Source: Dehalococcoidia bacterium (lineage in GTDB: Bacteria > Chloroflexota > Dehalococcoidia > SHYB01). From it: a stretch of 64,000 nt of DNA. A model generated the notes under the pieces. The model searched no databases, was not told the origin of the DNA, and saw only the letters and a program-made list of their open reading frames with translations. Shown here one piece after another: positions 35,423 through 51,580 of this stretch. Both the position numbers and the translations under genes were made by a program. Numbering within the stretch: the first letter of the stretch is position 1; each line of letters starts with the position of its first letter. Where the stretch lies: positions 579,444 to 643,443 of the forward strand of contig OZ253453.1 in assembly GCA_965261455.1 (NCBI GenBank). Direction: 5' to 3'.

Positions 35423-37176
35423 TTGCACCAACAAGGTGGCACGATAAAAGAGACACTGGACAGCATCGCATCGCGTGGATATGTTCTGCCGGCAATTCAA
35501 AGGGAGTTTGTATGGCGGCCCGAACAAGTGTGCAATCTATTCGACAGCCTGATGCAAGGCTACCCGTTCGGCGAGTTCATGTTCTGGAGGGTTGAGGCGC
35601 AGAATGCGGGTCAATACCGTTGGTACGACTTCGTTAGGGAATACCATCAGCGTGACAACCCGCATTGCCCGGAACTCGGACCCATTCACGACAAACTCTG
35701 ACCGCCGTGCTTGATGGCCAGCAACGCTTGACTGCGTTCAATATAGGCCTCCGGGGCTCTATGGCTAAGAAATTGCCGTACAAGTGGTGGAACAGCTCCG
35801 ACGCCTTTCCCAAGAGGGTGCTGGCACTTGATTTGTTGGCACCCCCGGACCCCGATGAAGAAGGCAGCCGCTATACCTTCGAGTTCGTCAATGAGGACCG
35901 CATCGGTTCGGAGGACGCTCGGTTGTGGTTCAGGGTGTCAGACATCATGAGCTACTCGACGACGAACCCTGCCCCAGATATGCTAGATTGGATATCTGAC
36001 CTAGGTCTCGATACGGAGCGACAGCGCATGGCCTTTCGTACGCTAAACCGACTCCACCAAGCCATCTGTGTCGAGCCCGTCGTTGCCTACTACGAGGAGA
36101 AGAGCCAAGACATTGAGCGAGTGCTCAATATCTTCATACGGTGCAACAGTGGTGGGACACCCCTTTCCTACTCCAATCTTCTCTTGAGCATCGCGGTGTC
36201 GCAGTGGAATACCCTTGACGCCAGGAAAGAAGTCCATGGACTAGTGGATGAAATGAACAGGGTCAGGGCTGGGCTGCTGTTCAATGCGGACTTTGTCCTA
36301 AAGGCAGGTCTCATGCTGACCGACATTGCCAGTGTGGGATTTCGGGTTGAGAACTTCACCCGTGAAAACATGGTCATCTTGGAAGAGAATTGGCCGAATA
36401 TCCGTCAGACATTGCTGGAGACGGTGGAGCTCACTGACAGTTTCGGTTTTGACAGCAGGACTATCCAAGCCACCAACTCGCTTCTGCCCATCGCCTATTA
36501 CCTTTACAAGAAAGGGGCGCCACGGAACTTTGAAACCAGCGACCATTACCTAGATGACCGTAAGATAATTCGGGGTTGGTTGACCCGGTCCATTCTGAAG
36601 GAATCAGGGATTTGGGGCAGTGGGCTGGATACCTTGCTGACAGCATTGCGGGAGGTAATCCGCAATTCGGGAGGATCGGAGTTTCCTGCTGCCGAACTTC
36701 GCCGGGTGATGGCCCAGAGGGGTAAGACGCTGGACTTTGGCGAGGAAGAAATAGAAGACTTGGCCGACATGCGGCTGGGGGACCGTCGTATTTTTGCATT
36801 GCTAACCATGTTGTTTCCTCATTTGGAGTCCAGAGACGGATCTGACATCGACCACGTATTCCCAAAGAGTAGATTTACTCCCAATCGGCTGAAGGCTGCG
36901 TGTGTTGCAGATGAACAGATTGAAGCATTCCGGGATTGCTACGACCGCCTTGCGAATCTCCAGCTACTCGACCGATCAATCAACCAAGAGAAACGGGCTA
37001 CGTTACCAGCCGACTGGTCGGACGTCCATTGCCTGGATGACCAAGCCCGGCAGAATTACTGTGACCGTCATTTGCTTGGCGATGTTCCCAGAGAGATCAC
37101 GGAGTTTACCGACTTTTATTCGATCCGCCGTCAGAAACTCCGAGAACGTATTGCGGTACTAGTGAACTCTGTGTAA
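35423..37176 (+). pseudogene. GmrSD-family (DUF262 + DUF1524/HNH) modification-dependent restriction endonuclease, -1 frameshift
   Basis: LPAIQREFVW, FDSL..GYP, LDGQQRLT, F.R.NSGGT.L, DHVFP, NLQLL..N..K. One A missing near 35697. Confidence 0.85.
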
Positions 37177-37270
37177 TTGTGTATTTCACGGGAAGACGGT
37201 GGACTCCTCGGGCGCACTTGCTAATTCCAGAGTTCTTAAACCCTGTGGAGGCGACAACACGAGAGCCACA

Positions 37271-37636
37271 ATGCTGACGTTGACTGAACTCATTGCACGC
37301 GCACCGTGGAGGGAGGCGGTAACCTATCGTGATACCTGGCCCCACGAGTACGTGCTGTCTGAGAAGGACGCTCAGCAGGAGTTGCTGGAGGCGATCTGCG
37401 AGCGGTTCCGCGCTGGGGAGGGAGTGTCTTGCCGCTTCTTCCGCATGAATAACACCTATCTGTTCATAGGGGACTACAAATACTGACTGATGACCCACTG
37501 GGGCGACTTAGAGCCAGGGGAAGATTACGTGTTGAATCGCGCACGGCTCTACCGAGACCGCCGGGACTTCGTGATCCAGCCCGGGGACTCAGGCAAGCCG
37601 GAGGATTATCCGGTGAACCCCGCCTGTCGAAGTTGA
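37271..37636 (+). pseudogene. Hypothetical protein with in-frame TGA (probable Trp to stop)
   Basis: Protein-like reading continues 49 codons past TGA 37484-37486 (YKY*LMTHW...VLNRARLYRDRRDF). Confidence 0.55.
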
Positions 37637-37716
37637 ATCATCCGGTGAGGTCTCTATGGCTGACGATTCCTCGCGGCCGTTTGCCGACCTGTGGCTCAGA
37701 AGAAAGGAGTAGGACC

Positions 37717-38037
37717 GTGACCCAAGGGGAACGAATAGAGGACTCTTACACGGAGCTCTTCCCGAAGGACTTCGGCGAGCGACTGGAGCGGCTTCGTTCT
37801 CGCAGGCGGGCGATGAATCGGATCGTCGAGTTGGTGCGCGAGCTGGCTCCCATTCGCCAGCTGCACGTGAGCTACAGCACCGGACGAGATGACGCCACAG
37901 CCATCCGCGACGAGCTGGCCGACCTCGTGGAGCCTGAGCACCTCGTCGAGTCCCGGTTCGGCCTGGTCCTGGGCACTCATCTCGGTCCCAACACCATCAG
38001 AGTAGGGGTCACCCAGCGGAGTGGCGGGGACGAATAG
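37717..38037 (+). pseudogene. Chimera: XRE-HTH N-terminus fused to DegV-family C-terminus
   Basis: LFPKDFGERLER resembles 39681-39947; after about 37791 it reads RSRRRAMNRIVELV...GLVLGTHLGPNTI, a DegV-type end. Confidence 0.6.
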
Positions 38038-38429: not shown

Positions 38430-38660
38430 ATGCATGAAAGAAGAACCATCCGGCGGATTCGAGATGCTGTACGCCACGGGGAGCTTGAAGAGCCGTTCAG
38501 CCCACAACGCGTGAATGCCGTACTCGGGATTAGCTGGGGAGGGGTCTTCCTCCCTAAGCATCGAGTCGACAACCCAGATGGCAATACGGAACTCTTTGTG
38601 CGAGTCAGCAGTCATCCAGCGCTGTATCGCCTCGCCCCTAGCCCGAGGCCGAGAAGGTGA
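38430..38660 (+). CDS. Small hypothetical protein
   Basis: Compact ORF directly after the DUF5679-like gene; FLPKHRVDNPDGNTELFVRV looks protein-like; no family recognised. Confidence 0.5.
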   Translation: MHERRTIRRIRDAVRHGELEEPFSPQRVNAVLGISWGGVFLPKHRVDNPDGNTELFVRVSSHPALYRLAPSPRPRR

Positions 38661-38851
38661 CGGTGCGCACTTTCGATAGCCCTGTGTCTCGTCTTCGCAT
38701 TAGCGCGGGGCGATAATGTCGGCTGGGTCAGGGGGATGTGGAGAAGTTGGAGACCGTGGGACGAGCCTCCAACCGTGAGAGGCCGGAGGCTCGTGAAGGG
38801 CTTACGAACGGTCGTCGACCGGTTCCCTATAGCCGGACCTCCCAGCGAAAA

Positions 38852-38901
38852 GTTCGCAATTCAGTCTTATCAGGCCCACCAAACTGGACAAAATCAAGAA
38901 C
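38852..38901. mobile_element. Putative large-serine-recombinase att junction 1 (P x P'-like), overlapping a recombinase C-terminal remnant on the minus strand
   Basis: Dyad about 38876/38877: GTC/GAC at -/+11-13 and GTTC/GAAC at -/+22-25. Core TCAGGCCCACCA. Minus strand reads VLDFVQFGGPDKTELRTFRWEVRL then stop. Confidence 0.65.
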
Positions 38902-39009
38902 CTTCACGTTAGGGTTCACACTGGCGCTGTGATTAACCATCGGCCCCGTCCCCCTACTATACCTGCCAGAGACTAGCAGGGCAGCCTTCCGGCAAAAGAC
39001 CGAGATCCC

Positions 39010-39037
39010 AAGGCCCTGCGGACCGCAGGGCCTTTTT
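39010..39037 (+). terminator. Intrinsic terminator
   Basis: AAGGCCCTGCG-GAC-CGCAGGGCCTT stem followed by a T run. Confidence 0.8.
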
Positions 39038-39370
39038 CCCTTGAGGAAGCCAGGTGTGTTGGCACGGGGCGCAAGAACGCAGCTGATTCCAGCAGCAAAA
39101 CGCGAAAAGGACAAGGAGTTATCTGTCTTTCAATAGACACAAACAACTCCGGTACTCGTGGGTAGTCGATTTGGATGCAACTGGGGTGGAATAGGTGACA
39201 ACTGCCTCGGAGACTACAGACCTCCCATCCTTGGTGGATTAAAGAAAAGGCCTGCTGACTGGCCCTCACCGCGAAAGCTGGTCCAGCTGGAGTGTTGGTA
39301 TTGTGGGATTATCGCAGTCCCATTATTGCTGACAATCTACACACAAGACTCAAATGCACCGTTTTTCAGC

Positions 39371-39538
39371 AGGCTTTTTGACGCAACGTGTTCGCAAACT
39401 AACGGGAGCGCTGCTGCGTGCATTTGGTGATTTGTATGCGCCTTCTTTTGTGGGTGTCCCTACAGCCATTTAGCGTGTGCTTTTGATGAGGGCGCTTAGC
39501 ATGTTCAATGTAGGTACTAATGCCTACACGTGATTGGG
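39371..39538. promoter_or_regulatory. Conserved non-coding cassette copy A (palindrome TGTAGG-N8-CCTACA at 39509-39528)
   Basis: Aligns along its length with 42218-42385 and 46434-46600. Confidence 0.8.
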
Positions 39539-39680
39539 ACCCGGTCGGAGCAAGACGAGGCCGCGAAGTGCGGGGGAGGTCGTCGCTGCAAGCGCGGTGG
39601 CCTCCCCGCGCGCAACCATGTATGCGGCCCTTTTGCGTTTCAGGGCCTGGGGCTGCGGCCCCTCACCGGCGCGCCGTTCC

Positions 39681-39947
39681 CTATTCGGTAAATATGGAGC
39701 CGAGGCCAAAGTCGTCGGCCAGGTCCAGAAGCGCTTTCAGGTGATGTTGGTTGGGCCGCACCTCGGCCTTGCACCAACGCCAAACGGTGTGACGATAGGT
39801 CTCCAAACGGCGGGCGATCTCCGACCACGACAGCCCCGACTCCTCCTGGAACCGCCTCAGCCGCTTCGGGAAGTCGGCGGGAACGACGCAGATTCTTCTG
39901 TTGTAGCGATTGCGCTGTCGAGGCGTGGCATAAGCGCTCCAGAGCAC
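39681..39947 (-). CDS. XRE-family helix-turn-helix protein (start region possibly damaged)
   Basis: DFPKRLRRFQEESGLSWSEIARRLETYRHTVWRW..VRP. The expected M-PRQR start is ACG or shifted by a 5-bp ATGCC/ACGCC duplication. Confidence 0.75.
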   Translation of the reverse strand: MLWSAYATPRQRNRYNRRICVVPADFPKRLRRFQEESGLSWSEIARRLETYRHTVWRWCKAEVRPNQHHLKALLDLADDFGLGSIFTE

Positions 39948-40079
39948 AGCCGTCGGTCCTTCTCCTATGGGAGGGCAGGGCTCCCATTCCTGTATGGCTC
40001 ATGCCGCGGGAGATCCGGGTCCCGGTCGGAGCGCCTGCCTCGCCCGTTCATACTTGGCCTGCTTCTTCCCGTTTGCCCT

Positions 40080-42041
40080 CTACTGGCCCGGCCCGCTGAC
40101 GGTGCGCTCCAGGCGGTTGGACAACTTCTCATCGCCGTCGGCGCAGATGGCCCCCTGCGCGTCGCAGTCCGTGGTGGCGGGCAGAGTGATCGTCACGTGC
40201 CCGTTGGAGTCCGGGCTAACGACGATCTCCCATCGGAGGTTCTTGCCGCTGACCAGCCGCCGCGCGCCGGTTACCGAGCCTCCGGTCACCGTGAAGGCGT
40301 GGTCGCGCATCGTGGTGTAGCTGAAGCCCGATTTGGGCGCCTCGCTAAAGGCGATCCTGATGCGGAACGAGGCGCTGCCGTTGTGGGACGTCGGGACGCT
40401 CTCGAAACTTGCCGTCAGCGGAGGCCCCTTGACGGTGAATTTCAGCGGGCTGGACAGCACCCTGCCGTCCTCGGCGCAGATGGCCCCCTGCGCGTCGCAG
40501 TCCGTGGTGGCGGGCAGCTCGACGGTGACGTCCGCGTTCGAGTCCGGGGTGACGCTGATCTCCCACTTGATGTTGCGGGTGTCGCTGTCCCCGTCCAGCC
40601 GCCGGGCCCCGGCCACCGTGCCGCCCGTCACCGTGAACGCATGGTCCCGCAGCGTCTTGTAGCTGAAGTCTTCCTTGGGGTCCTCGCTGAACCGCAGTTC
40701 GAATTTCAACGCGGCCTGCCCGTTGTGCGAGCCCGGCGCGTCGTGGGTGGCGGCCGTCAGTGGGGTGGGCGCTGAAGCCACCGCTACGGTAGCAGCGCTA
40801 GTCAGCGTCTCCTGGTGACCGCTGTCGTCAGTGAAGGTGACCCGCACCTTGATGGTCTTTCCCTCGTCTCCGGCAACCAGGGCGTAGGTCGAGCCGGTCG
40901 CGTCAGTGATGTCCGCGTCGTCGGCCAGCCACTGGTATGTAAAGGTGGCGTTGTTCAGGCCGTCGGAGTCGGATAAGTCCGTGGTACCCGCCGTGAGCGT
41001 CTCACCCACCCGGATCGTGCCTGTGATGGTGGGCTCGCCGGTGGCGGTGGTGTTGGACGCAATCACTTCTGCATCGGGGATAATCAAGGGTGGGGCGGAC
41101 AGCCTTGCGTCGCTGGTCAGCGACTCGGCGTTGCCCGCGTCGTCGGTGAAGGTGACCCGCACCTTGATGGCCTTGCCCTCGTCGGCGTCGGTCACGGTGT
41201 ATGTGGAGCTTGTCGCTCCCTCGATGTCCGCGTCGGTGCTTGTCGCCGGATCCTGGCGGACCCACCGGTAGGCGAAGACCGCGTTCGTCAGGCCGTCCTC
41301 GTCCTCGATCCTGTCCGTGGTCGCGGTCAGCGTCTCGCCGGCCAGCACCGTCCCGGTGATGCCGGGCCAGCCCGTCGCCGGGCTGTTCGCGGCCTGATTC
41401 TGTGAGCTTGTTTGCGCGCTGGCATAGACGGCCATCATCATGCGCCGGCATCCCATGGGCGCCACCTTCCAACTGGACCCCAGACCGAAGAAAAGATTTT
41501 CGCCCAGCGACCAGCCAACCTCTCCGGTGGTCACACCCTCAGGGGTCAAAAGCCGATCGCATATCGAGGTGTCGATACGGATGTTGTCGGACCCCCATGG
41601 TCTGTGGAGCACCAACCAATAGGTCGTATCGGCGGCAAGCACATAACCGGTCGTCGTGAGGTCCTCGTGTGTGGTTATGAGCGAGTCGATGGTGGGGTTC
41701 GTCAAGGCCTGCAGACTCCGTCCGGGTTCTCCCGAGTTGTCGGCGCGTATGGTGACAGCGGGCGCTGATCCGAGTCCGCGCAGATACAGCCGGACTTTTT
41801 CAAGCGTAACGGCAGTGCTGCCGGTATGGAATGAATGTGCGTAGGCCTGACCCATGCCCACTATAATTCGACTGTGTTGGCGGACCTCCGGCGCTTCTCC
41901 CAGATTGCTAACCATGACGGTCGCAGTTGACTGCGCCGTCGCCGGGGCGATATTGGACACCACGAGCATGACCGCCATGGCGACGGCCGATAGCCAGACC
42001 ATGCATACCCGAACCCGGGTTACGTTGCTTGCCATATTCAT
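40080..42041 (-). CDS. Secreted modular adhesin-like protein 1 (choice-of-anchor-R-like N-domain, 2 SwmA-like/Ig repeats, 2 conserved C-terminal domains)
   Basis: Signal peptide (..APATA-Q); VSNLG..HSFHTG..DTTYWLV domain; TG.P.I.G...VG.TLTA..D.DGL..YQW repeats; twin P.SH.G..F.LRFSE..DHAFTVTGG..C...AIC domains. Confidence 0.85.
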   Translation of the reverse strand: MNMASNVTRVRVCMVWLSAVAMAVMLVVSNIAPATAQSTATVMVSNLGEAPEVRQHSRIIVGMGQAYAHSFHTGSTAVTLEKVRLYLRGLGSAPAVTIRADNSGEPGRSLQALTNPTIDSLITTHEDLTTTGYVLAADTTYWLVLHRPWGSDNIRIDTSICDRLLTPEGVTTGEVGWSLGENLFFGLGSSWKVAPMGCRRMMMAVYASAQTSSQNQAANSPATGWPGITGTVLAGETLTATTDRIEDEDGLTNAVFAYRWVRQDPATSTDADIEGATSSTYTVTDADEGKAIKVRVTFTDDAGNAESLTSDARLSAPPLIIPDAEVIASNTTATGEPTITGTIRVGETLTAGTTDLSDSDGLNNATFTYQWLADDADITDATGSTYALVAGDEGKTIKVRVTFTDDSGHQETLTSAATVAVASAPTPLTAATHDAPGSHNGQAALKFELRFSEDPKEDFSYKTLRDHAFTVTGGTVAGARRLDGDSDTRNIKWEISVTPDSNADVTVELPATTDCDAQGAICAEDGRVLSSPLKFTVKGPPLTASFESVPTSHNGSASFRIRIAFSEAPKSGFSYTTMRDHAFTVTGGSVTGARRLVSGKNLRWEIVVSPDSNGHVTITLPATTDCDAQGAICADGDEKLSNRLERTVSGPGQ

Positions 42042-42217
42042 CGGGTGAGTCCTTTTCTGTGGACTTGACTTGATCCCACACTGCAGCCCTGGAGGCGGTT
42101 TGATAGAGCTCTATACCGGATCCGCGGCGGCAGCTGTTTGTTGGGATTCGGCCCTATATACAAGTCTATGGGCGTCGACAGAGACTGCACAAGGTTCATT
42201 TGCACTATTTAGCAAGG

Positions 42218-42430
42218 GGCTTTTGGACGCAACATTTTAGCAAACTAGAGGGAGCGCTGCTGCGTGCATTCGGTGATTTGTATGCACCCTATTTTGGGGG
42301 TGTCTATATAGCTATTTAGCGTGTGCTTTTGATTAGGGCGCTTGGTATGTTCGATGTAGGTACTAACGCCTACAGATGATTGGGTACATTGCAGTCTCGA
42401 CAACGCCGCACAGTCGCGGTACGTTTGGGA
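42218..42430. promoter_or_regulatory. Conserved non-coding cassette copy B (palindrome at 42355-42374), upstream of adhesin 1
   Basis: GGGAGCGCTGCTGCGTGCATT is identical to copy A; TGTAGGTACTAACGCCTACA. Confidence 0.8.
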
Positions 42431-42498
42431 CGCCGGATGCAACGGCATGGGCGCGCCTGCCTCGCCTGTTCATACTTCCCTGCCTTTCTCGTCGCCCA

Positions 42499-45400
42499 CT
42501 ACTGAGTTGGCCCGCTGACGGTGCGCTCCAGGCGGTTGGACAGCTTCTTGTCGCCGTCGGCGCAGATGGCCCCCTGCGCGTCGCAGTCCGTGGTGGCGGG
42601 CAGAGTGATCGTCACGTTGCCGTTGGAGTCCGGGCTGACGGTGACTTCCCAGCCAATGTTGCTGCCACTGACCAGCCGCCGGGCCCCGACCACCGTGCCT
42701 CCCTCCACCGTGAACACATGATCGTCCCGCAGCGTCCTGTAGCTGAAGCCCGTCTTGAGTTCCTCGCTGAAGGCGATCCTGAATTTGAAGTTGTCGCTGC
42801 CGTTGTGGGACGTCGGGACGCTCTCGAAACTTGCCGTCATCGGAGGCCCCATGACGGTGAATTTCAGCGGGCTGGACAGCATCGTCCCGTCCTCGGTGCA
42901 GATGGCACCCTGCGCCTCGCAGTCCGTGGTGACGGGCAGCTCGACGGTGACGTCCGCGGTGGAGTCCGGGGTGACGCTGATCTCCCACCGGATGTTGGGG
43001 GTGTCGCTGCCGCTGTCCAGCCGCCGGGCCCCGGCCACCGTGCCTCTTGTCACCGTGAACGCATAGTCCCGCAGCGTCTTGTAGCTGAAGCCCGTCCCGA
43101 GCTCCTCGCTGAAGCGCAGCTCAAAGGTGAACTTTTCCTGTCCGTTGTGCGAGCCCGGCGCGTCGTGGGTGGCGGCCGTCAGTGGGGTGGGCGCTGAAGC
43201 CACCGCTACGGTAGCAGCGCTAGTCAGCGTCTCCTGGTGACCGCTGTCGTCAGTGAAGGACAACCGAACCTTGATGGTCTTTCCCTCGTCTGCGGCCGCC
43301 AGGGTGTAGGTTGAGCCGGTCGCGTCAGTGATGTCCGTGTCGTCGGCCAGCCACTGGTAGGTGAAGATCGCGTCGGCCAGCCCGTCGCTGTCTGATATGT
43401 CCGATGTTGATGCGGTCAGCATCTGTCCGACCTGCGCCGTCCCGCTGATCGTCGGCGCTCCGGTCGCGGCGCTGTTGGGTATGGCAGCCACTGCTACGGT
43501 GACGGCGCTCGTACGCGTCTCCTGGTTGCCCGCGTCGTCGGTGAAGCTCACCCGCACCTTGATGGCCTTTCCCTCGTCTGCGGCCGCCAGGGTGTAGGTT
43601 GAGCCGGTCGCGTCAGTGATGTCCGTGTCGTCGGCCAGCCACTGGTAGGTGAAGATCGCGTCGGCCAGCCCGTCGCTGTCTGATATGCCCGATGTTGATG
43701 CGGTCAGCATCTGTCCGACCTGCGCCGTCCCGCTGATCGTCGGCGCTCCGGTCGCGGCGCTGTTGGGTATGGCAGCCACTGCCGCAGTCGCCTCGCTGGT
43801 CAGCGACTCGTCGTTGCCCGCGTCGTCGGTGAAGCTCACCCGCACCTTGATGGCCTTTCCCTCGTCTGCGGCCGCCAGGGTGTAGGTTGAGCCGGTCGCG
43901 TCAGTGATGTCCGTGTCGTCGGCCAGCCACTGGTAGGTGAAGATCGCGTCGGCCAGCCCGTCGCTGTCTGATATGCCCGATGTTGATGCGGTCAGCATCT
44001 GTCCGACCTGCGCCGTCCCGCTGATCGTCGGCGCTCCGGTCGCGGCGCTGTTGGGTATGGCAGCCACTGCCGCAGTCGCCTCGCTGGTCAGCGACTCGTC
44101 GTTGCCCGCGTCGTCGGTGAAGGACACCTGCACCTTGATGGTCTTGCCTTCGTCTGCGGACGCCAGAGTGTAGGTAGAACCGATCGCGTCCTGGATAGCC
44201 GTGTCTTCGGTCCCATTGTTTGCGATCCACTGGTAGGTGAAGATCGCGTCGGCCAGCCCGTCGCTGTCTGATATGTCCGATGTTGATGCGGTCAGTGTCT
44301 GTCCGACCTGCGCCGTCCCGCTGATCGTCGGCGCTCCGGTCGCGGCGCTGTTGGGTATGGCAGCCGCTACGAATGAAGCCCTGGCCGCGCCGGTGTGTCC
44401 GAGAGCCGCGTCGCCGCCCGAGGACGCGCTCGTGATCGTGCCGCCGTTGAGCGTCAGACTGTCCCCCGGCACGAACATCGAAGAGTGGCTGCCGTCGTCA
44501 TCGGCCAGCGTGTAGCTGAATACGAGCTTCGTCGTGCCGCTGCCGTTGGCATAGGACGCGTTGTGGTCCAGCGTACCGCTCAGTTGGATTCCGATCGAGG
44601 GCGTGCCGTCGGTCGTGTCGACGTTCACCTCCTCGCTGAAGGTGAGCGTCACCTGCACGGCCTCGCCCGGCGTCCACTCGCCGTCCGAGCCGGCCTCGCT
44701 CAACGCCGGCGAGCCCGTGATGGTGGGCGTCGTCCCGGTGATGCCGGGCCCGTTTTGTTGCTGGGACCGCTGGCTCGGCGTGTCCCGTGGCGCCACCGAT
44801 GCCGTGGGCGCGCTGGTCAAGGCTTCCGTGTAGCCAAATTCGTCACTGAAGGCCACCTGCACCGTGATAGTTTTGCCCTCATCATCGGTAACAAGCGTGT
44901 AGGTAGAACTCGTTGCGCTTTCGTTAGCCGTGTTTTCGGTGCCGTCGTTTGCGAACCACTGGTAGATTAACGTGGAGGTGACGATGCCGTCAGTGTCCTG
45001 TATGTCGTCAGTGTCGGCGGTAAGTGTCTCCCCCACCTGCGCTGTGCCCGTAATGACAGGGCTGCCGGTGGCCGCGTTGTCGGGTGGAGCCGGTATTAAT
45101 TGGATCTCACTCCTCAGCGTCTCGGTAGTGCCGCGGTCATCGAGAAAGGATGCCCGCGCCTGAATGCCTTTGCCCCTATCGGCATCCTGGACCACGTATG
45201 TCCAGTTCCAAGTGGGGTATTCGGGATGTCGAACTCTCTCCTCGGCTAATGTCCTCGGGTCAATACGAAACCACTGCCATGAAAACTTGGTTAGATGACC
45301 CCTTAGAGATTGCGTGCCGTCTTCGTCCTGTACGTTGAGCACGCCGCCGTGAAGTGAACGGCCAACCCGCATTTCACCATAAGTGGTTATACGGACATTT

Positions 45401-46287
45401 CCCGTTGCGGGGGCGTTGGTTGATTGCTGTTGAATGATCAGGCCATCTGCGTTTGCCACGAGGTTTTCGCTCACGACCTCCGCTTTCTTGAGGCATGGTT
45501 GGCCATGTCGATCGACATAGGTATGGCTGTACACATCGGGACAAGTCTGGTCGAGGTAGTATATGGTGAACTTAAGATACCTGTACCGGTTATCTACGTT
45601 CGGCGTAAAGTAAAGATTGCGATTATTTCTTTCGAATTCGTCCCTTGTGAGGAAGAACGGGCCGGTAGCCACGTTGGCCCTGGACCACATTGATCTGAAA
45701 ACTCCCCCTATAAGGCCGTCAGGATCGTACAAACTGGCCCTCACCTGCACTCCTACCTGGGGATAGGATGTTGACAGCGTGACAATTCCCGGTTCATCGA
45801 CGTTGCGGACTGTGATGCTCATGGGGACGGTGGCTTCGGAGGAGTCCTCTGCGTCGGTCACGCTGACAGTGAGCGAGTACGAATTGTACGCTTCGTAGTT
45901 GGGGGAAGCGCCCGACTTGACGGTGATCTCGCCGGTGCTCGCGTTCAGGTCGAACACCCTATTGAATTTCGCGACGTCGGTTCCGCCGACGGAATAGGTG
46001 AGGGAGTCGCCATGGGGCTCGCAGGCGGCCACTGTGCCCACGAGAGTGTTCGATTCGGTGTTTTCGTCCAGAGAGAACCCATAAGAGTCCGTGTTGCTGT
46101 TGCCGTTGCAGAACGACACCGCGCTAGCCTGTGCCTGGACGGCCCCGACGGAGAGGGCGCCGAAGGTCGCGGCGGCCAGCAGCATGGCAGACAGGAAAAC
46201 CCAACGCCAGGATCGGATCGCTTCGGGGCGAGGGCCCCGGTCAGAGGTGCGACGCCGGATAACGGCTGATGGAAATAGGAACTTCAT
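42499..46287 (-). CDS. Secreted modular adhesin-like protein 2 (cadherin domain, variable domains, multiple SwmA-like/Ig repeats, same C-terminal domains)
   Basis: Signal peptide (..AVQA); cadherin motifs FSLDEN..VGTVAA..LTYS..YE..YSLTVSVTD..NVDEP; repeats and C-terminus as in adhesin 1. Confidence 0.88.
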   Translation of the reverse strand: MKFLFPSAVIRRRTSDRGPRPEAIRSWRWVFLSAMLLAAATFGALSVGAVQAQASAVSFCNGNSNTDSYGFSLDENTESNTLVGTVAACEPHGDSLTYSVGGTDVAKFNRVFDLNASTGEITVKSGASPNYEAYNSYSLTVSVTDAEDSSEATVPMSITVRNVDEPGIVTLSTSYPQVGVQVRASLYDPDGLIGGVFRSMWSRANVATGPFFLTRDEFERNNRNLYFTPNVDNRYRYLKFTIYYLDQTCPDVYSHTYVDRHGQPCLKKAEVVSENLVANADGLIIQQQSTNAPATGNVRITTYGEMRVGRSLHGGVLNVQDEDGTQSLRGHLTKFSWQWFRIDPRTLAEERVRHPEYPTWNWTYVVQDADRGKGIQARASFLDDRGTTETLRSEIQLIPAPPDNAATGSPVITGTAQVGETLTADTDDIQDTDGIVTSTLIYQWFANDGTENTANESATSSTYTLVTDDEGKTITVQVAFSDEFGYTEALTSAPTASVAPRDTPSQRSQQQNGPGITGTTPTITGSPALSEAGSDGEWTPGEAVQVTLTFSEEVNVDTTDGTPSIGIQLSGTLDHNASYANGSGTTKLVFSYTLADDDGSHSSMFVPGDSLTLNGGTITSASSGGDAALGHTGAARASFVAAAIPNSAATGAPTISGTAQVGQTLTASTSDISDSDGLADAIFTYQWIANNGTEDTAIQDAIGSTYTLASADEGKTIKVQVSFTDDAGNDESLTSEATAAVAAIPNSAATGAPTISGTAQVGQMLTASTSGISDSDGLADAIFTYQWLADDTDITDATGSTYTLAAADEGKAIKVRVSFTDDAGNDESLTSEATAAVAAIPNSAATGAPTISGTAQVGQMLTASTSGISDSDGLADAIFTYQWLADDTDITDATGSTYTLAAADEGKAIKVRVSFTDDAGNQETRTSAVTVAVAAIPNSAATGAPTISGTAQVGQMLTASTSDISDSDGLADAIFTYQWLADDTDITDATGSTYTLAAADEGKTIKVRLSFTDDSGHQETLTSAATVAVASAPTPLTAATHDAPGSHNGQEKFTFELRFSEELGTGFSYKTLRDYAFTVTRGTVAGARRLDSGSDTPNIRWEISVTPDSTADVTVELPVTTDCEAQGAICTEDGTMLSSPLKFTVMGPPMTASFESVPTSHNGSDNFKFRIAFSEELKTGFSYRTLRDDHVFTVEGGTVVGARRLVSGSNIGWEVTVSPDSNGNVTITLPATTDCDAQGAICADGDKKLSNRLERTVSGPTQ
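43290..44370 (-). repeat. Near-identical 288-bp (96-aa) intragenic tandem repeats
   Basis: Shadow ORFs recur at 43361, 43649, 43937 and 44237; the unit AAIPNSAATGAPTISGTAQVGQ.. occurs four times. Confidence 0.92.
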
Positions 46288-46433
46288 GCAATCACTCCGA
46301 TGTAGATGGGATTGGCCCTGGAATTTTGGGCATCAAGAACGGTGGCCAGCCTGCATTTTGACGCCCACTAAGCTGAATCAGATTACAAGAGCTTACAGGA
46401 CTCAACAAGGGCCATATGCAAATACTTTGCCGT

Positions 46434-46645
46434 AGGCATTTGGACGCAACGTTTTCTTAGACTAATGGGAGCGGATTCTGCATGTATTTTGTGATTTGAA
46501 TTCGCCTTCTTTTGTGGGTGTTTATTAGCCATTAGTGTGTGGTGTTGAATAGGGTGTATGGCATTTTCTACGTAGGTACTAATGCCTACACATGATTGGG
46601 TACATTTCAGTCTCGACAACGTGGCGCCGTCGCGGTACGTTTGGA
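46434..46645. promoter_or_regulatory. Conserved non-coding cassette copy C (palindrome at 46571-46590), between divergent adhesin 2 and the sensor kinase
   Basis: CGTAGGTACTAATGCCTACA; the flank ATGATTGGGTACATT.CAGTCTCGACAACG is shared with copy B. Confidence 0.8.
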
Positions 46646-46699
46646 GGTGCGGCATGCAACGGCACTCACCCTGCAAGTGAGAGAGGTCCACCTATATTG

Positions 46700-47977
46700 A
46701 TGCCAGAGGACGGTTTGGGCGGAGCGCGTCCCATCCCCGCAGCATCGCAACGCGGGTTGCGCTGGGGGTCTAGAGGCCCGGCCAGGCTCGGCGCCGAACT
46801 GCGCAGGCAGGTCCTACGGGCCGTCCGGGCCGACCCGGACGTGATGCTGTACGCCGCGAGGGTCTCGGTCTGGGCGCGCTGGCTCGGCTGGCTCGTCGGC
46901 GTGTTCGAATTGGCCTATCGACCGGGGCTCTGGTACGCCACCGACAAGGAGTACCTGTTTCTGAGCGTGCCGCTGCTGGCGTTCAACGGGTTCGTCCACT
47001 ACCGGCTCCGGACGGATCGGACGGTGACGTGGCGCTGGCTGTTCTTCCTCAGCGGCATGGATATCGCGCTGATCACTGCCATCGTCATCATCGGCGGCGA
47101 CTTCCACCTCTTCAGCTACGTGGCCTACTATCCCGCCCTGGCGCTGTTCGCGGTCGTCTTCGCGTCCCTGTGGCTCAGCCTCGCCTGGGCGACGATGGCC
47201 GGGGCCATCTATGCCGTGGTCAGCCTGACGGTGGGCCCGGGTCTCGATTTCGATGCGGGTCAGGAGAAGGCCCTGCTCGTCAGGGTGGTGGCCATGTATG
47301 CGGTCGTCGCATCCGTCAGCCTCATCGCCCGGTTCGAACGGGTGAGGCGGCAGGAGTCCTCGGAACGGGAACGGGAGCTGCTTCGGGAGCGCATCGAGAT
47401 CTCCCAGGCCATCCACGACACGGCCGCGCAGACCGCGTACATGATCGGCCTGGGGATACGCAAGGCCATGAGGCTGGCCGGCGGCTCGAACGAGGAGCTG
47501 GCCGCCACGCTGGCCGCCACCGCATCGCTGTCGAAGGCGGCCATCTGGGAGTTGCGGCGTCCCATCGACGAGGGCCATCTCTTCGAGGGGAGGGAGTTGG
47601 GCCGGGTGCTCTGGTCGCACACCGAGACATTCGAGAGGGTCTCGTCGACCCCCGCGGAGATGCTGCAGTCCGGGACCGAGCCCCCGCTTGCCGTGGAGAC
47701 CCGGGCCCGCCTCTTCTCCATCGCCCACAACGCGCTCACCAACGCATTCCTGCACGCCGGGGCCGGCCGGGTCGAGGTCCGGCTGGACTTCGGGGCCGAC
47801 TCTATCCGGCTGTCTGTCTCGGACGACGGGGGCGGCCTTCCCGAGGACTACGCCGAGCGCGGCCGGGGATTCAGGGGCATGAGGGCGGACGCCGAGCGGC
47901 TGGGCGGCAGGCTCATTGTGGAGACGGGCGGCCTCAATGGGGGAACGACCGTGACCTGCGAGATACCCTACCGATAG
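46700..47977 (+). CDS. Membrane sensor histidine kinase, HisKA_3 (NarX/DesK) type
   Basis: About 5-6 TM segments; H-box ISQAIHDT; N-box HNALTNAFLHA; DDGGG; GGT.V. ATG 46700 after GAGAGG. Confidence 0.9.
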   Translation: MPEDGLGGARPIPAASQRGLRWGSRGPARLGAELRRQVLRAVRADPDVMLYAARVSVWARWLGWLVGVFELAYRPGLWYATDKEYLFLSVPLLAFNGFVHYRLRTDRTVTWRWLFFLSGMDIALITAIVIIGGDFHLFSYVAYYPALALFAVVFASLWLSLAWATMAGAIYAVVSLTVGPGLDFDAGQEKALLVRVVAMYAVVASVSLIARFERVRRQESSERERELLRERIEISQAIHDTAAQTAYMIGLGIRKAMRLAGGSNEELAATLAATASLSKAAIWELRRPIDEGHLFEGRELGRVLWSHTETFERVSSTPAEMLQSGTEPPLAVETRARLFSIAHNALTNAFLHAGAGRVEVRLDFGADSIRLSVSDDGGGLPEDYAERGRGFRGMRADAERLGGRLIVETGGLNGGTTVTCEIPYR

Positions 47978-47996
47978 TTGCTGAGAGGAGACCGAG

Positions 47997-48671
47997 ATGT
48001 CATCTAAGGAACGGATCAGAGTGATGCTGGCGGACGACCACCCCATCATGAGGGACGGCCTGCGGGACACCCTTGAGGGCGAGGGGGACTTCGAGGTGGT
48101 CGGATCGGCGGCAGATGGGGTTGAGGCGGTGAGCATGGCGCAGAGCGTTGCGCCCGAGGTCATCGTCATGGACGTGATGATGCCGAACATGGACGGCGTG
48201 GACGCCTGCCGGGAGATCATGGAGTTGCTGCCGGACACGCGGGTGCTGATGCTGACGGCCTCGACCACAGAGGATGCGGTCGTGGAGGCGATCGCCGCCG
48301 GCGCGACGGGCTATCTGCAGAAGGACACGGGGCCTGAGGAGCTGGCGGAGGCGATTCGGGAGGTGGCCCAGGGCCGTCTGCGCATACCGGACAAGGCCAT
48401 AAGGCGGGTCTTCGCGATGATCCGCGGCCAGCGGGCGCTCACCGCGAGTCGGGCCCTGAAAGCGCTAACCGACCGGGAGCGGGAGATCCTGCAGATGTTT
48501 GCCAGCGGCAAGTCATACGCCCAGATCGCCGAGGCCAAGGGCAACAAGATCGTGACCGTCAGGAACTCGGTCTACCGCATTCAGGACAAACTGGGAGTCG
48601 ATACGAAACAGGAGATGGTAGTGTGGGCCGTGAAGAACGGCCTGCTGGACGAGGTGGAGCGGGATGGTTGA
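47997..48671 (+). CDS. NarL/FixJ-family response regulator (REC + LuxR HTH)
   Basis: LADDHP, VMDVMMP phospho-Asp, GYLQK, LTDREREIL..IAE..TVRN. Confidence 0.95.
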   Translation: MSSKERIRVMLADDHPIMRDGLRDTLEGEGDFEVVGSAADGVEAVSMAQSVAPEVIVMDVMMPNMDGVDACREIMELLPDTRVLMLTASTTEDAVVEAIAAGATGYLQKDTGPEELAEAIREVAQGRLRIPDKAIRRVFAMIRGQRALTASRALKALTDREREILQMFASGKSYAQIAEAKGNKIVTVRNSVYRIQDKLGVDTKQEMVVWAVKNGLLDEVERDG

Positions 48672-48963
48672 TGCTGTCTTGCTTCGGCCAGCGGGGGACA
48701 GTCCGGCGCGGCCGAACGAGGCCAACGAGGAGCCAGTGGAACATTTCAAGTGGGATATGATTCCCTTGCCTCTGCCCGAGTGAGGCGGCAGCGGAGAGGA
48801 GTTGGCAGGCGCGGGACAGTGGCCAGCCGGCATATGGGTCACCATCGTGGGATTGTGGGCCGATGAGTGGATGGTGGTGTAGCTTAGTCCACCCTCAGCA
48901 TCATTCAATTCAGGCGAAGACTTCCGGTAGGTTCACAGGCTTCCCAACCACATCTCGAATATA

Positions 48964-49007
48964 GTTCTGTCTATCGTCAAAATAGGCCCACCGAACTGGA
49001 CTCGAAC
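48964..49007. mobile_element. Putative large-serine-recombinase att junction 2 (P x B'-like)
   Basis: Same core AGGCCCACC.AACTGGAC; GTC/GAC at -/+11-13; GTTC at -22 to -25 but GAAC at +16 to +19. Minus strand reads VQFGGPILTIDRTIFEMWLGSL then stop. Confidence 0.65.
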
Positions 49008-50058
49008 CGCTCATAGGTCGCGTCGCCTGCAACCCTCTTCCATTGACTCGAGGGCAACAGCCCACGAGTAGTAGAGTCTTCCGTTGCCTTTGCGTCGCAT
49101 CCATCGGGAGATCGGGGAGAGGCTGCAACGCGGACGACGTGGGCAGGCTACCGCATGGTGAGAGGCCTCGACGCCACGCCGGGGAGCAGGAAGAAGACCG
49201 CGGCTGCTCCCCCGCAATGCTACGAAGCACCTATGGAGGCTGAAGCATCCGTGATCGGCGGGGTCGCCGCCGTCGGGCCGGGTGCACGGTCTGCTCGACG
49301 AAACCCTAGCGGTCGAAGCCGCTCAGCAGGAGCAGCCGGCGTCTCTCGTCGGGCAAGGCTCCGCCCCTCCAGGATGTCATTCATGCCCGTGACCCCCAGC
49401 CGCATAGACAAGGCGCTCCCGTGTCTTGTCGGCAAGACCCGCGCACGGTTCCTGCCCTCGGCGGGCGCACCCCATTAAGAGAGAGTTAATAGTGCCGTGA
49501 GGCAAGGGACAGTCGTGTCCCTTGGGACAGGGTATTGCTTTCCACTGGCGGAGACTAGCATTTCCGACAACGTTTCCTCAGGAAACTCCGCCCCAGCGGG
49601 ATAAGGTGGCGACACGGAGCGATGGACGACACGACGATCTAGCAAGAGGCGGCGCAACGACGCCCGGGACGGGGGCAAGCGTCGCCGCGCCTCTCCGCCG
49701 AGCAGCGGGAGACGCTCGATTGACCGAACAGCGGCAAAGGCAACAAGCGGCGAGGGTGAAGGCAAGGGTTGGGAGCGACCGGGGGGCACCAGAATGCCGA
49801 GAGGCACCACGAGGCAGTCGAAGGCGAACCGAGCAGCGACCTGTGCCCGCGTGTCAGGCAAGGGCAGGGGCAGGGAGGACAAGACCTCCACCTCCGAGCA
49901 AATCGGCGAATGTAGGCCCACTCCGTACGCAGGGACTGATCCTTTTCGCGGGACACCAGGATGTCGGTCCAGGCTGTTACCGAAGCGGGCGGAGTTCCAG
50001 TATGTCCGCCGGAGTCAGAGCAGGCACTTCGACACGATAGCCTACCAGGAGAGTCCGC

Positions 50059-50319
50059 ATGAACCGATTACTTAGGCGGAAAGAGGTTGAGCAGATGGTC
50101 AGCCTGAGCCGCGCTTCCATCTACCGTTTAGCGGACAGTGGTGACTTCCCCCATCCCATCCGCGTTGGCCCTCGTGCCGTGCGCTGGCGCTTGGGAGACA
50201 TCGAGCAGTGGATGTCGGAACGCCCTCTCGCAACCGACAAAGTAGAGAAGGTCAGCAAGGAGCCTAGTCACAAGTCCGTATTGGTAGAGGCGGCGAGACG
50301 TGATGCTCCCGTTTGGTGA
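50059..50319 (+). CDS. AlpA-family phage/ICE regulatory protein
   Basis: RLLRRKEV..SLSRASIYR..GDFPHPIRVGPRAVRW..DIEQW. Confidence 0.88.
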   Translation: MNRLLRRKEVEQMVSLSRASIYRLADSGDFPHPIRVGPRAVRWRLGDIEQWMSERPLATDKVEKVSKEPSHKSVLVEAARRDAPVW

Positions 50320-50683
50320 CCCTCTGCGATAGCGCGGCACCAACGGGGCGCCCGCCGTGGTGACTGCTACAAAGAGGCGGACATGCGACAGGCGCTAGAC
50401 GATGCGGCGTACACTGGCGTTGACGCACTGTTTCACCGCCAAGGATTCCGCGAGGACCCCGATGATGCATGGTCCTTTCGGCGGACCGTCCTGGACAGTA
50501 CTGCGCGGCTCGCGTGCGTGTGGTACACGGTGTGGTACTGAGGCCAAAATGGACGGCTCCAACTGGTTTAGTGCATAGACGCATGCGCCACCATTCCTCC
50601 TCTTATCGCAAGGTGTCGCCCCGGCGATCGGCGGGGAAACCAGGAAGGCGAACGCCGTTCCCGGCGACGAAAGGAGGCCCGTA

Positions 50684-51580
50684 GTGGAAAGAGACCTCGT
50701 GGGCTATGGCCCCGACCTTCCGGCGGTCCGGTGGCCCGGCGATGCGCGCATAGCGGTTTCGATGGTGGTGAACTACGAGGAGGGGTCCGAATACTCCATT
50801 CTCGATGGCGACTCGCATAGGGAAACGAACGGCGAAGTCGCCTCGCCCATGCCGATGGACACGAGGGACCTTCTGAATGAGTCCATGTTCGAGTATGGGA
50901 GCCGGGTGGGAGTCTGGCGGCTGATGCGTCTGTTAGACAAACACGATGTGAAAGCGACGTTCTTCTGCTGCGCGCTTGCGGTGGAGCGAAACCTTCGCGT
51001 TGGACAGGAGATCACACGCAGGGGTCACGAGGTTTGCGGGCACGGTTATCGGTGGGAAGAATACTACGCGTTCGAGAAAGAGGATGAGCGCGCGGTCATC
51101 GTCAAGGCGACGGACTCGTTGGAAAAGACGACCGGTCAGCGTTCGCTAAGTTGGTTCACCAGGTATGGCGTGAGCGTCAACACCAGGGACTTGCTGGCGG
51201 AGATCGGCGGCTTTCTGTACGACAGCAATTCCGTCAGCGACGATCTGCCGTACTACACAACGGTCCATGGCAAGCCGTGGCTGGTCCTTCCGTACAGCGT
51301 GGAGGTCAACGACGCCCGCTTCTGGAGAGGCGGTCTGACGAGCACCGAAGACTTCTACTCCTACATGAAAGACTCGTTCGACTGCCTTTATGAAGAAGGT
51401 GGAGAAACGCCGAGGATGATGAGCGTCGGGCTCCACTGCCGGATTGCTGGGCGGCCTCCCCGCTCGACGGCCGTGGACCGGTTTCTCGAGTACGCGAAGG
51501 GCCACCCGGACGTCTGGTTCGCGCGCCGCATCGATATAGCGCGATGGTGGCTTGACAACTACCCGCCCGACGGCGCTTGA
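50684..51580 (+). CDS. puuE: Polysaccharide-deacetylase-fold allantoinase (PuuE-like)
   Basis: RDLVGYG..WPGDARIAV..NYEEGSE, ESMFEYGSRVG, HGYRW, MMSVGLHCRIAGRP. Confidence 0.8.
   Translation: MERDLVGYGPDLPAVRWPGDARIAVSMVVNYEEGSEYSILDGDSHRETNGEVASPMPMDTRDLLNESMFEYGSRVGVWRLMRLLDKHDVKATFFCCALAVERNLRVGQEITRRGHEVCGHGYRWEEYYAFEKEDERAVIVKATDSLEKTTGQRSLSWFTRYGVSVNTRDLLAEIGGFLYDSNSVSDDLPYYTTVHGKPWLVLPYSVEVNDARFWRGGLTSTEDFYSYMKDSFDCLYEEGGETPRMMSVGLHCRIAGRPPRSTAVDRFLEYAKGHPDVWFARRIDIARWWLDNYPPDGA

Follow-up and report, generated by a model that had tools for sequence, protein, structure and literature searches.

In a 64,000-nt stretch of the genome of a Dehalococcoidia bacterium (contig OZ253453.1; the whole stretch is hereafter called the window), three copies of a non-coding cassette, each carrying a TGTAGG-N8-CCTACA palindrome, lie beside two genes for large secreted proteins and the genes of a two-component system. 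We think that the cassette is probably a bidirectional promoter/operator region of ~270 bp, acting at the DNA level between the operon of a HisKA_3 kinase and a NarL-type regulator on one side and a divergent gene for a secreted ‘adhesin’ with Ig-like repeats on the other. In the scenario that we propose, the phosphorylated regulator would bind some of the boxes in the cassette, autoregulating its own operon and activating weak adhesin promoters. The control region has been copied, in whole or in part, together with additional adhesin genes, and recombination between the copies and between the Ig-like repeats reshuffles the array. All genes behind a cassette would then answer one membrane signal. 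As for the palindrome box, it would most likely be a distal or shared operator rather than the sole or essential site of the regulator.

The pattern TGTAGGNNNNNNNNCCTACA, i.e., the palindrome with at most one mismatch, occurs exactly three times in the window, at 39509, 42355 and 46571; about 0.04 matches would be expected by chance, and three matches were found in 0 of 100 shuffles. Repeat search and MAFFT alignment gave 83% identity between copies A and B over 197 nt (39342-39538 versus 42188-42384), 84% between B and C over 113 nt and about 79-81% between A and C over ~170 nt. When a hidden Markov model (HMM) of the three copies was scanned against the window, it matched only 39341-39609, 42187-42454 and 46403-46671, in all cases on the minus (adhesin-sense) strand. 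The copies differ by many indels and have no conserved reading frame in common. Thus, the claim of an earlier note on this DNA that there are three alignable non-coding copies, each with the palindrome, is borne out by repeat search, MAFFT and HMM alike, with one mismatch in the palindrome of C. The unit itself had been put at ~170 bp, which the HMM matches show to be too short: common to A, B and C are ~198 nt, which begin with CCCAATCA, 8-10 nt ahead of the palindrome, and end with CCTTGTG; B and C have ~268 nt in common, the kinase side adding ~70 nt beyond the part found in all three.

Copy C (46403-46671, minus strand), delimited by an nhmmer match to model positions 2-264 and by the alignments, comprises the whole divergent control region that separates adhesin 2 from the kinase. 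Copy B (42187-42454, minus strand; nhmmer) is likewise full-length, lies upstream of adhesin 1 and contains an orphan kinase-type promoter. Copy A (39341-39538, minus strand) comprises the part in common with B and C, which begins with CCCAATCA and the palindrome and closes with a −35-like end, and follows a gene for an HTH_31 protein; model columns 1-66 in the match to A (39539-39609) have no homology to B or C and represent the 3' flank of the HTH_31 gene with its hairpin. Copy A is followed by no open reading frame (ORF). The distances reported before also hold: the palindromes of B and C are 314 and 284 nt from the ATG codons of adhesin 1 (42041) and adhesin 2 (46287), respectively, and that of C is 110 nt from the kinase ATG (46700).

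The tie between the cassette and the two-component system, which the earlier note had proposed from the window alone, recurs across related loci. We compared six metagenome contigs with an identical regulator (L001-L006) and 71 loci with kinase homologues of 26-94% identity. An iterated nhmmer search over these 1.59 Mb yielded 69 cassette matches, 59 of them distinct. In every fetched locus whose kinase is at least ~73% identical, a cassette stands immediately upstream of the kinase gene, and loci combining a cassette with an orthologous kinase came from 25 assemblies, mostly Dehalococcoidia metagenome-assembled genomes (MAGs) and one chromosome labelled Acidimicrobiales. Extra copies are found further upstream in the same orientation, before genes for large secreted proteins. 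For most copies that possess the 3' end, whether full or 3'-partial, a large ORF of 280-1776 aa begins roughly 50-300 nt downstream, and many of these ORFs carry C-terminal modules of the window adhesins. Around more distant paralogues, several of them from the same MAGs, ~0.9 Mb contained no cassette match. Such co-inheritance strengthens the proposal that the cassettes mark a regulon of the NarL-type system, which is plausible, if unproven. One chromosome (OZ253485.1; loci L025/L064) has the cassette and the kinase as a large inverted duplication, with copies on both strands ~3.4 kb apart.

The two-component genes themselves are of a well-defined type. The kinase (46700-47977, plus strand) has ~5 predicted membrane helices, no periplasmic domain, and HisKA_3 and HATPase_c domains (Pfam, 6e-06 and 2.4e-11), with the conserved-His motif IHDTAAQ in the translation. 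The adjacent response regulator (47997-48671, plus strand) is a NarL/FixJ-family protein with a receiver (REC) domain and a GerE helix-turn-helix (Response_reg 1.1e-29, GerE 1.3e-11). Together, they carry the domains that characterize NarL/FixJ-type systems. DevR, VraR, NarL and DesR were the top PDB matches of the regulator; it scored 159.9 bits against the NCBIfam NarL model, under the equivalog cut-off of 250, which speaks for family membership and not for orthology. Relatives of the kinase came almost entirely from Dehalococcoidia MAGs.

On the other side of the cassettes, adhesin 1 (40080-42041, minus strand; 653 aa) combines a choice-of-anchor R domain with ZirU/Ig-like repeats, and adhesin 2 (42499-46287, minus strand; 1262 aa) combines a cadherin domain with repeats of the same kind. 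Both start with hydrophobic, signal-peptide-like N-termini, are predicted to be secreted, and might reasonably be labelled ‘adhesins’; a PDB sequence search for structural relatives of adhesin 2 returned no matches. The 3' third of adhesin 1 is ~87% identical to its counterpart in adhesin 2, and the homology extends from these coding parts into the trailers: the adhesin-2 trailer (42450-42498, minus strand) is homologous to that of adhesin 1 (40028-40079), with 93% identity between 40028-40055 and 42450-42477. Homology of the two 3' untranslated regions had been claimed before, and it is confirmed here.

We predicted promoters on both sides of the cassette. On the kinase side, the predicted operon promoter P_HK (46613-46641, plus strand) is composed of the −35 hexamer TCGACA (46613-46618), a 17-nt spacer and the −10 hexamer TACGTT (46636-46641), the end of which is ~58 nt from the kinase ATG. 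No other block on the kinase side is as well conserved as these two hexamers; 29 of 39 distinct copies have them unchanged and exactly 17 nt apart, with varying spacer sequence. On the adhesin side, the cassette always ends with CCTTGTnn, beyond which the sequences split into several unrelated families. Despite this divergence, TAnnnT (mostly TAGnCT) occurs 16-19 nt past TTGTnn in 30 of 48 distinct copies, and the remaining ones mostly carry near variants, such as GAAACT or TATATA, at the position of the adhesin −10. The consensus form is TTGTGC-17/18-TAGnCT on the minus strand. Accordingly placed are the predicted promoters of adhesin 2 in copy C (46380-46408, minus strand; −35 TTGTTG at 46408-46403, 17-nt spacer, −10 TAATCT at 46385-46380) and of adhesin 1 in copy B (42163-42192, minus strand; −35 TTGTGC at 42192-42187, 18-nt spacer, −10 TAGACT at 42168-42163). 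Therefore, in both directions there are conserved −35 and −10 elements at a suitable spacing, varied spacers and flanks, and ORFs downstream, as expected of sigma-70-type promoters. Inspection of the cassette by eye revealed no conserved candidate for a sigma-54-type, an extracytoplasmic-function (ECF)-type or an additional internal promoter. Copy B also contains a complete orphan P_HK (TCGACA-17-TACGTT; 42397-42425, plus strand) directed antisense toward the 3' end of adhesin 2, from which an antisense transcript could arise.

Several conserved boxes lie between the two promoters: the palindrome box TGTAGGCATTnGTAC(CTACA), ATGTACCC, AAACGTTGCGTC and TTGCAnAnGA. The AAACGTTGCGTC box, at 46443-46454 in copy C and with counterparts at 42226-42237 in B and 39380-39391 in A (all minus strand), is found ~40 nt upstream of the −35 and is among the blocks of highest information in the cassette; TTGCAnAnGA sits 3 nt upstream of the adhesin −35. 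Both are confined to this orthologue group, and each may serve as an activator site of the weak adhesin promoters. A conserved box, ATGTACCCAAT (46595-46605, minus strand; also 42379-42389 in copy B), is located between the palindrome and the −35 of P_HK, and its GTAC-containing motif is also present in paralogous loci.

Distant paralogues offer a hint as to which sequences this family of regulators might recognize. Within 350 nt ahead of the kinase genes in 31 non-redundant loci of this kind, ATTnGTAC, the core of the palindrome box, is ~12-fold enriched (16 of 31 loci versus 4.8% of background windows), and the related heptamer ATGTACC is ~23-fold enriched. The cassette itself contains three GTACC elements: AACGTACC, which overlaps the kinase −10, AATGTACC, and TTAGTACC, which is inside the palindrome box. 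Such enrichment lends indirect support to the idea that GTAC-containing half-sites, and not the TGTAGG/CCTACA arms as such, serve as the regulator sites of the family. Matching the regulator to variants of the boxes was uninformative, because its recognition helix TVRNsvYRIQDKLG is almost invariant over all paralogues.

Herein, the palindrome deserves a closer look. Its arms form a perfect 6-8-6 arrangement in A (39509-39528) and B (42355-42374); in C (46571-46590), the plus strand reads CGTAGGTACTAATGCCTACA, with one mismatch in an arm (CGTAGG). Over 47 distinct copies, arm complementarity is perfect in 12, reaches five pairs in another 12 and does not exceed four in 23. The left arm and the spacer, TGTAGGCATTnGTAC, have a high information content, and most of the right arm has a low one. 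Standard pairs make up 87.7% in the arms versus 85.6% in column shuffles, and a single clade shows an A-T to G-C double change. Therefore, the two-fold symmetry appears to be weakly maintained at best. Moreover, some short copies lack the palindrome altogether: the copy B' of five sister contigs begins at model position 137, and others begin near 113-116 or 192-214. The palindrome is thus neither the best conserved part of the cassette nor an indispensable one. Its centre lies ~67 nt upstream of the predicted start of the kinase operon, which is compatible with control of that promoter. Long copies without P_HK, found after the HTH_31 gene as in copy A, also keep the palindrome; this is seen in three lineages with differing upstream junctions and suggests that it may have some importance other than for the kinase promoter. 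Overall, the palindrome is a conserved box with an uncertain binder and of secondary importance.

A second candidate binder of the palindrome is encoded between adhesin 1 and copy A (39681-39947, minus strand), namely the HTH_31 protein, an XRE-type protein of 88 aa. It is conceivable, if improbable in our estimation, that the palindrome is the operator of this protein and that the two-component regulator uses other boxes. Dimers of small XRE proteins typically recognize inverted repeats of this sort, the distance between the palindrome and the end of the HTH_31 gene is ~150 nt, and HTH_31 genes or their remnants are found directly before A-type cassettes in the window and L001-L006 as well as in L026, L020, L011 and L007, the long A-type copies that follow them having a perfect or near-perfect palindrome. 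However, the kinase-side copies of L008, L009 and L012 keep the palindrome box with no HTH_31 gene within 10 kb, L024 has an HTH_31 gene and yet a degenerate right arm, and the core ATTnGTAC recurs upstream of paralogous kinases that mostly have no HTH_31 gene nearby. The HTH_31 segment of the window is flanked by a 16-nt direct repeat, GGGWCCCGGTCGGAGC, at 39536-39551 (the junction of cassette A) and 40017-40032 (the adhesin-1 trailer), which gives the impression that recombination at these repeats brought the gene in or is able to remove it.

The age of the loci limits what can be read from the overall similarity of the cassettes. Third-codon identity of the kinase and regulator genes between the window and most of the related Dehalococcoidia loci (L007-L067) is 81-96%, while that of the cassette is only 67-85%. 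For the copy on the Acidimicrobiales-labelled chromosome (L023), third-codon identity is 66-74%. Judged by these values, the loci are recent relatives that most likely spread horizontally, which suggests a transfer possibly reaching across phyla. We had to reject overall conservation of the cassette as a sign of constraint, because the neighbouring third-codon positions are even more conserved; only the contrast between the boxes and the variable parts is informative.

This brings us to the possibility that only copy C functions, as the true divergent promoter, and that A, B and their palindromes are passengers of segmental duplication or gene conversion which form no regulon. The lower conservation of the cassette relative to third-codon positions would fit such a reading. 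So would the orphan kinase promoter in copy B and the kinase 5' fragments in copies at other loci, which show that whole blocks are copied indiscriminately, as well as the missing gene downstream of copy A and the replacement of copy B in the window relative to sister contigs. Nevertheless, the promoter-proximal boxes and the −35/−10 elements persist before intact large ORFs in the shortest of the internal copies, too, and three independent A-type junctions all preserve the stretch from the palindrome to the −35. Hence, we give the passenger reading little chance against a control region that was duplicated together with its target genes.

A role for the cassette or its palindrome as RNA (a structured 5' leader, a small RNA or a hairpin that controls adhesin expression after initiation) seems to us the least credible of the alternatives. 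The palindrome can form a hairpin of 6-7 bp with −6.9 to −9.6 kcal/mol (z −1.3 to −2.1), and most substitutions in the arms fit G-U pairs on the adhesin-sense strand. However, RNAalifold gave no consensus structure on either strand, the values for 28 non-redundant full-length copies (359 columns) being only −4.6 and −4.1 kcal/mol. The surplus of paired cells over shuffles given above is small, with a single compensatory clade, and unrelated sequence families follow the −10. Since the palindrome of copy C lies between two diverging predicted promoters, it is probably not transcribed. At the gathering threshold, Rfam gave no match in the whole window; a search with E up to 5 over 38600-50700 produced only two matches, both at chance level and outside the cassettes. 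No tRNA gene was detected by ARAGORN.

The array behind the cassettes is anything but static. At the position where the window has the full copy B with its orphan P_HK, the sister contigs L001-L004 and L006 hold the short copy B'. Contig L005, which lacks the equivalent of window positions 40981-43484, has lost cassette B and part of each adhesin gene and encodes just one, fused adhesin of 1288 aa; this fusion arose by recombination between 288-nt tandem Ig-like repeats (window 43198-44373), the number of which in adhesin 2 differs between contigs. In L026, an adhesin-2-like gene stands behind a unit consisting of the HTH_31 gene followed by a cassette. As these three cases indicate, the array grows, shrinks and reshuffles by homologous recombination, and the earlier idea of an adhesin array is supported in general terms. 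Homopolymer runs also differ between near-identical loci: a poly-G run of 5-10 nt is found ~20-30 nt after the cassette end, just past the predicted −10 (B' copies; L001, L002, L006, L012 and L041), and a poly-C run of ~12-25 nt, variable in length, is found inside the cassettes of L017, L019 and L067 (alignment columns 220-245). Such differences could reflect slipped-strand phase variation or errors of long-read sequencing.

The whole module of ~10.1 kb is bracketed by an 18-bp direct repeat, AGGCCCACCRAACTGGAC, at 38872-38889 and 48984-49001, and homology to L001 begins and ends at these repeats. At its right end lies TGTCTATCGTCAAAATAGGCCCACC, which is also found behind the regulator gene in L002, L004, L012, L014, L015, L024 and L026, with divergence directly beyond it. 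Flanks vary among the contigs with an identical regulator and include type I restriction-modification genes, GmrSD, IS21/Mu, and AlpA with an integrase. Altogether, the module looks like a mobile island with an att-type junction in a variable region. To the left of the island (35665-38037), the window has a gene for a GmrSD-type restriction endonuclease and a DegV-family fragment; beside the island, sister contigs carry type I restriction-modification genes, an SMC-like ATPase/metallophosphatase and a DNA methylase. With defence genes at this place in both the window and its sisters, the variable region that harbours the island is a defence-rich one.

Keeping in mind this apparent mobility, one might ask whether the cassette is itself a recombination or mobility element (MITE-like, i.e., resembling a miniature inverted-repeat transposable element; attC-like; or a cassette-exchange site) that shuffles adhesin genes rather than regulating them. 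Units of promoter and gene do occur in differing orders, as with the adhesin-2-like gene behind an A-type copy in L026, copy B of the window is a mosaic, and the entire module sits on an island between 18-bp direct repeats. Against this stands the absence of terminal inverted repeats and target-site duplications at the cassette ends, which led us to reject a dispersed repeat or MITE, and no integron-type integrase adjoins the array. All 69 matches lie upstream of a kinase gene or within the adjacent arrays, upstream of genes and in the same orientation, save for the inverted duplication L025/L064. A check for dispersal independent of adhesin or two-component genes, which the earlier note had named as a possible refutation, detected none in the 1.59 Mb around kinase loci, so that copies outside this locus type are missing from all the sequence examined. 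As ordinary homologous recombination accounts for the rearrangements, we hold a mobility element to be very unlikely, and a control region carried along by recombination remains our preferred interpretation.

Copy A requires a separate comment. It has no good −10 at the usual spacing; a near-consensus promoter-like site, TTGTCA-16-GATAAT, sits 11 nt further on (39308-39335, minus strand; TTGTCA at 39335-39330, GATAAT at 39313-39308), with TG upstream and a match to the consensus at 10 of 12 positions. In the window as in L001-L005, copy A is followed by no coding sequence, and neither blastn nor tblastx detected a remnant of an adhesin gene downstream of it. The next 300 nt are conserved among these six contigs. 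Within them, a non-coding stretch of 145 nt (39116-39259) has a homologue by the island end in L012 (13384-13527; 77% identical) and in L015 (12349-12399). As RNA, 39005-39305 of the minus strand folds better than shuffles (z −3.0), and a strong terminator-like hairpin is found on the plus strand at 39010-39034. This gene-free stretch may be a small RNA, a relic or an island-end sequence. The earlier note had suggested that a third cargo gene was deleted here. Given that an adhesin gene comes next after the HTH_31 gene and cassette in L026 and L020, loss of a gene is plausible; on the other hand, the gene-free state recurs in five other contigs and copy A has a promoter-like site of its own, and this is not simply a fresh deletion. 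In our scenario, the gene downstream of copy A would have been lost or replaced, and the promoter-like site, being kept, would transcribe the conserved non-coding stretch.

Several observations weigh against the interpretation of the cassette as a duplicated control region. Given the youth of the loci, its overall conservation says little, and it might co-occur with the two-component genes not for reasons of regulation but because both are physically linked on one mobile island. The promoters were all called by their similarity to the consensus, which the adhesin −10 and −35 each match at only ~3 of 6 positions. The two-fold symmetry of the palindrome is poorly conserved across relatives, short copies without a palindrome still sit before intact adhesin genes, and the palindrome centre, ~207 nt upstream of the predicted adhesin start, is far away for a direct activator. 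Finally, copy A has no gene to regulate.

Where these organisms live can be guessed from their genomes. Two kinase loci in which no full cassette was detected, L032 and L053, belong to bins of the samples SB0662 and SB0675, other bins of which are sponge-associated Entoporibacteria; we infer that these Dehalococcoidia are probably of sponge origin. A metagenome scan with the promoter-proximal pattern AACGTTGCRT-N19-24-GCANNNGNNNCTTGT returned 36 hits, none of which agreed with the cassette HMM outside the pattern, and the GC content of which did not fit. They are chance hits, and the scanned collection therefore seems to lack these organisms. Scanning of viral contigs with the palindrome box gave one hit, which was unrelated.

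It is tempting to go further and to suppose that the cassette is a portable ‘plug-in’ control module. Carried on the ~10-kb island bracketed by AGGCCCACCRAACTGGAC, it would spread among the probably sponge-associated Dehalococcoidia and the Acidimicrobiales-labelled genome, and any surface-protein gene recombining behind a cassette would join one NarL-type system. Distal and proximal boxes would cooperate, for example by looping, and the antisense transcript of copy B and a structured RNA of copy A would add further control. As a whole, this extended version of the control-region scenario is rather unlikely in our opinion.

The closest parallels are the autoregulated NarL/FixJ systems, e.g., NarXL, LiaSR/VraSR, DevRS/DosRS and BvgAS. 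As in these, there is a HisKA_3 kinase with a REC-GerE regulator, a divergent target expressed from a common intergenic region, weak target promoters and conserved upstream boxes. BvgAS, which acts on the fim/fha adhesin promoters, also targets surface or adhesin-like proteins. Unlike in these systems, an entire control region of ~270 bp, sometimes with the kinase promoter, has been copied as a unit before further genes, the host is an uncultured member of the Dehalococcoidia, and the system is found on a mobile island. To our knowledge, none of the textbook sites (the NarL heptamer TACYYMT in its 7-2-7 arrangement, the Dos box, or the ACT-N-AGT of LiaR/VraR) matches a box of the cassette. Overall, a two-component system with divergent targets on a common promoter is a conventional arrangement, and it is new for this group.

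An analogy with the lux box had also been drawn in the earlier note. LuxR is an autoinducer-binding protein and not a phosphorylated response regulator. As for the DNA, both sites are 20-bp elements, in the case of the lux box that of a GerE/LuxR-type helix-turn-helix protein, and they have only the hexamer TGTAGG and GTAC in common. The symmetry of the lux box, ACCTGTAGGATCGTACAGGT (20 bp), is CTGTA-N6-TACAG (sequence from PMC4444344), whereas the arms of the palindrome box are TGTAGG/CCTACA at 8 nt and have another symmetry axis, with a symmetry that is not conserved across relatives. The resemblance is thus superficial.

The array also resembles multigene families of surface proteins, in that the promoter region and the 3' coding part with its trailer are conserved and the N-terminal parts variable, copy number and order vary in close relatives, and recombination between Ig-like repeats fuses or deletes genes. 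In contrast to such families, no programmed switching, invertible element or archive of silent cassettes is in evidence here.

If our interpretation is correct, the cassette and its neighbours would constitute a testable circuit, composed of a sensor, a regulator, DNA boxes and surface-protein targets, in the uncultured and genetically intractable Dehalococcoidia. The defined boxes and promoters could be used as probes for DNA affinity purification sequencing (DAP-seq) and electrophoretic mobility shift assays (EMSA) and for the reading of metatranscriptomes. Such a circuit would show how surface proteins are added or swapped under one signal, and it would bear on host attachment and strain-level variation in these bacteria.

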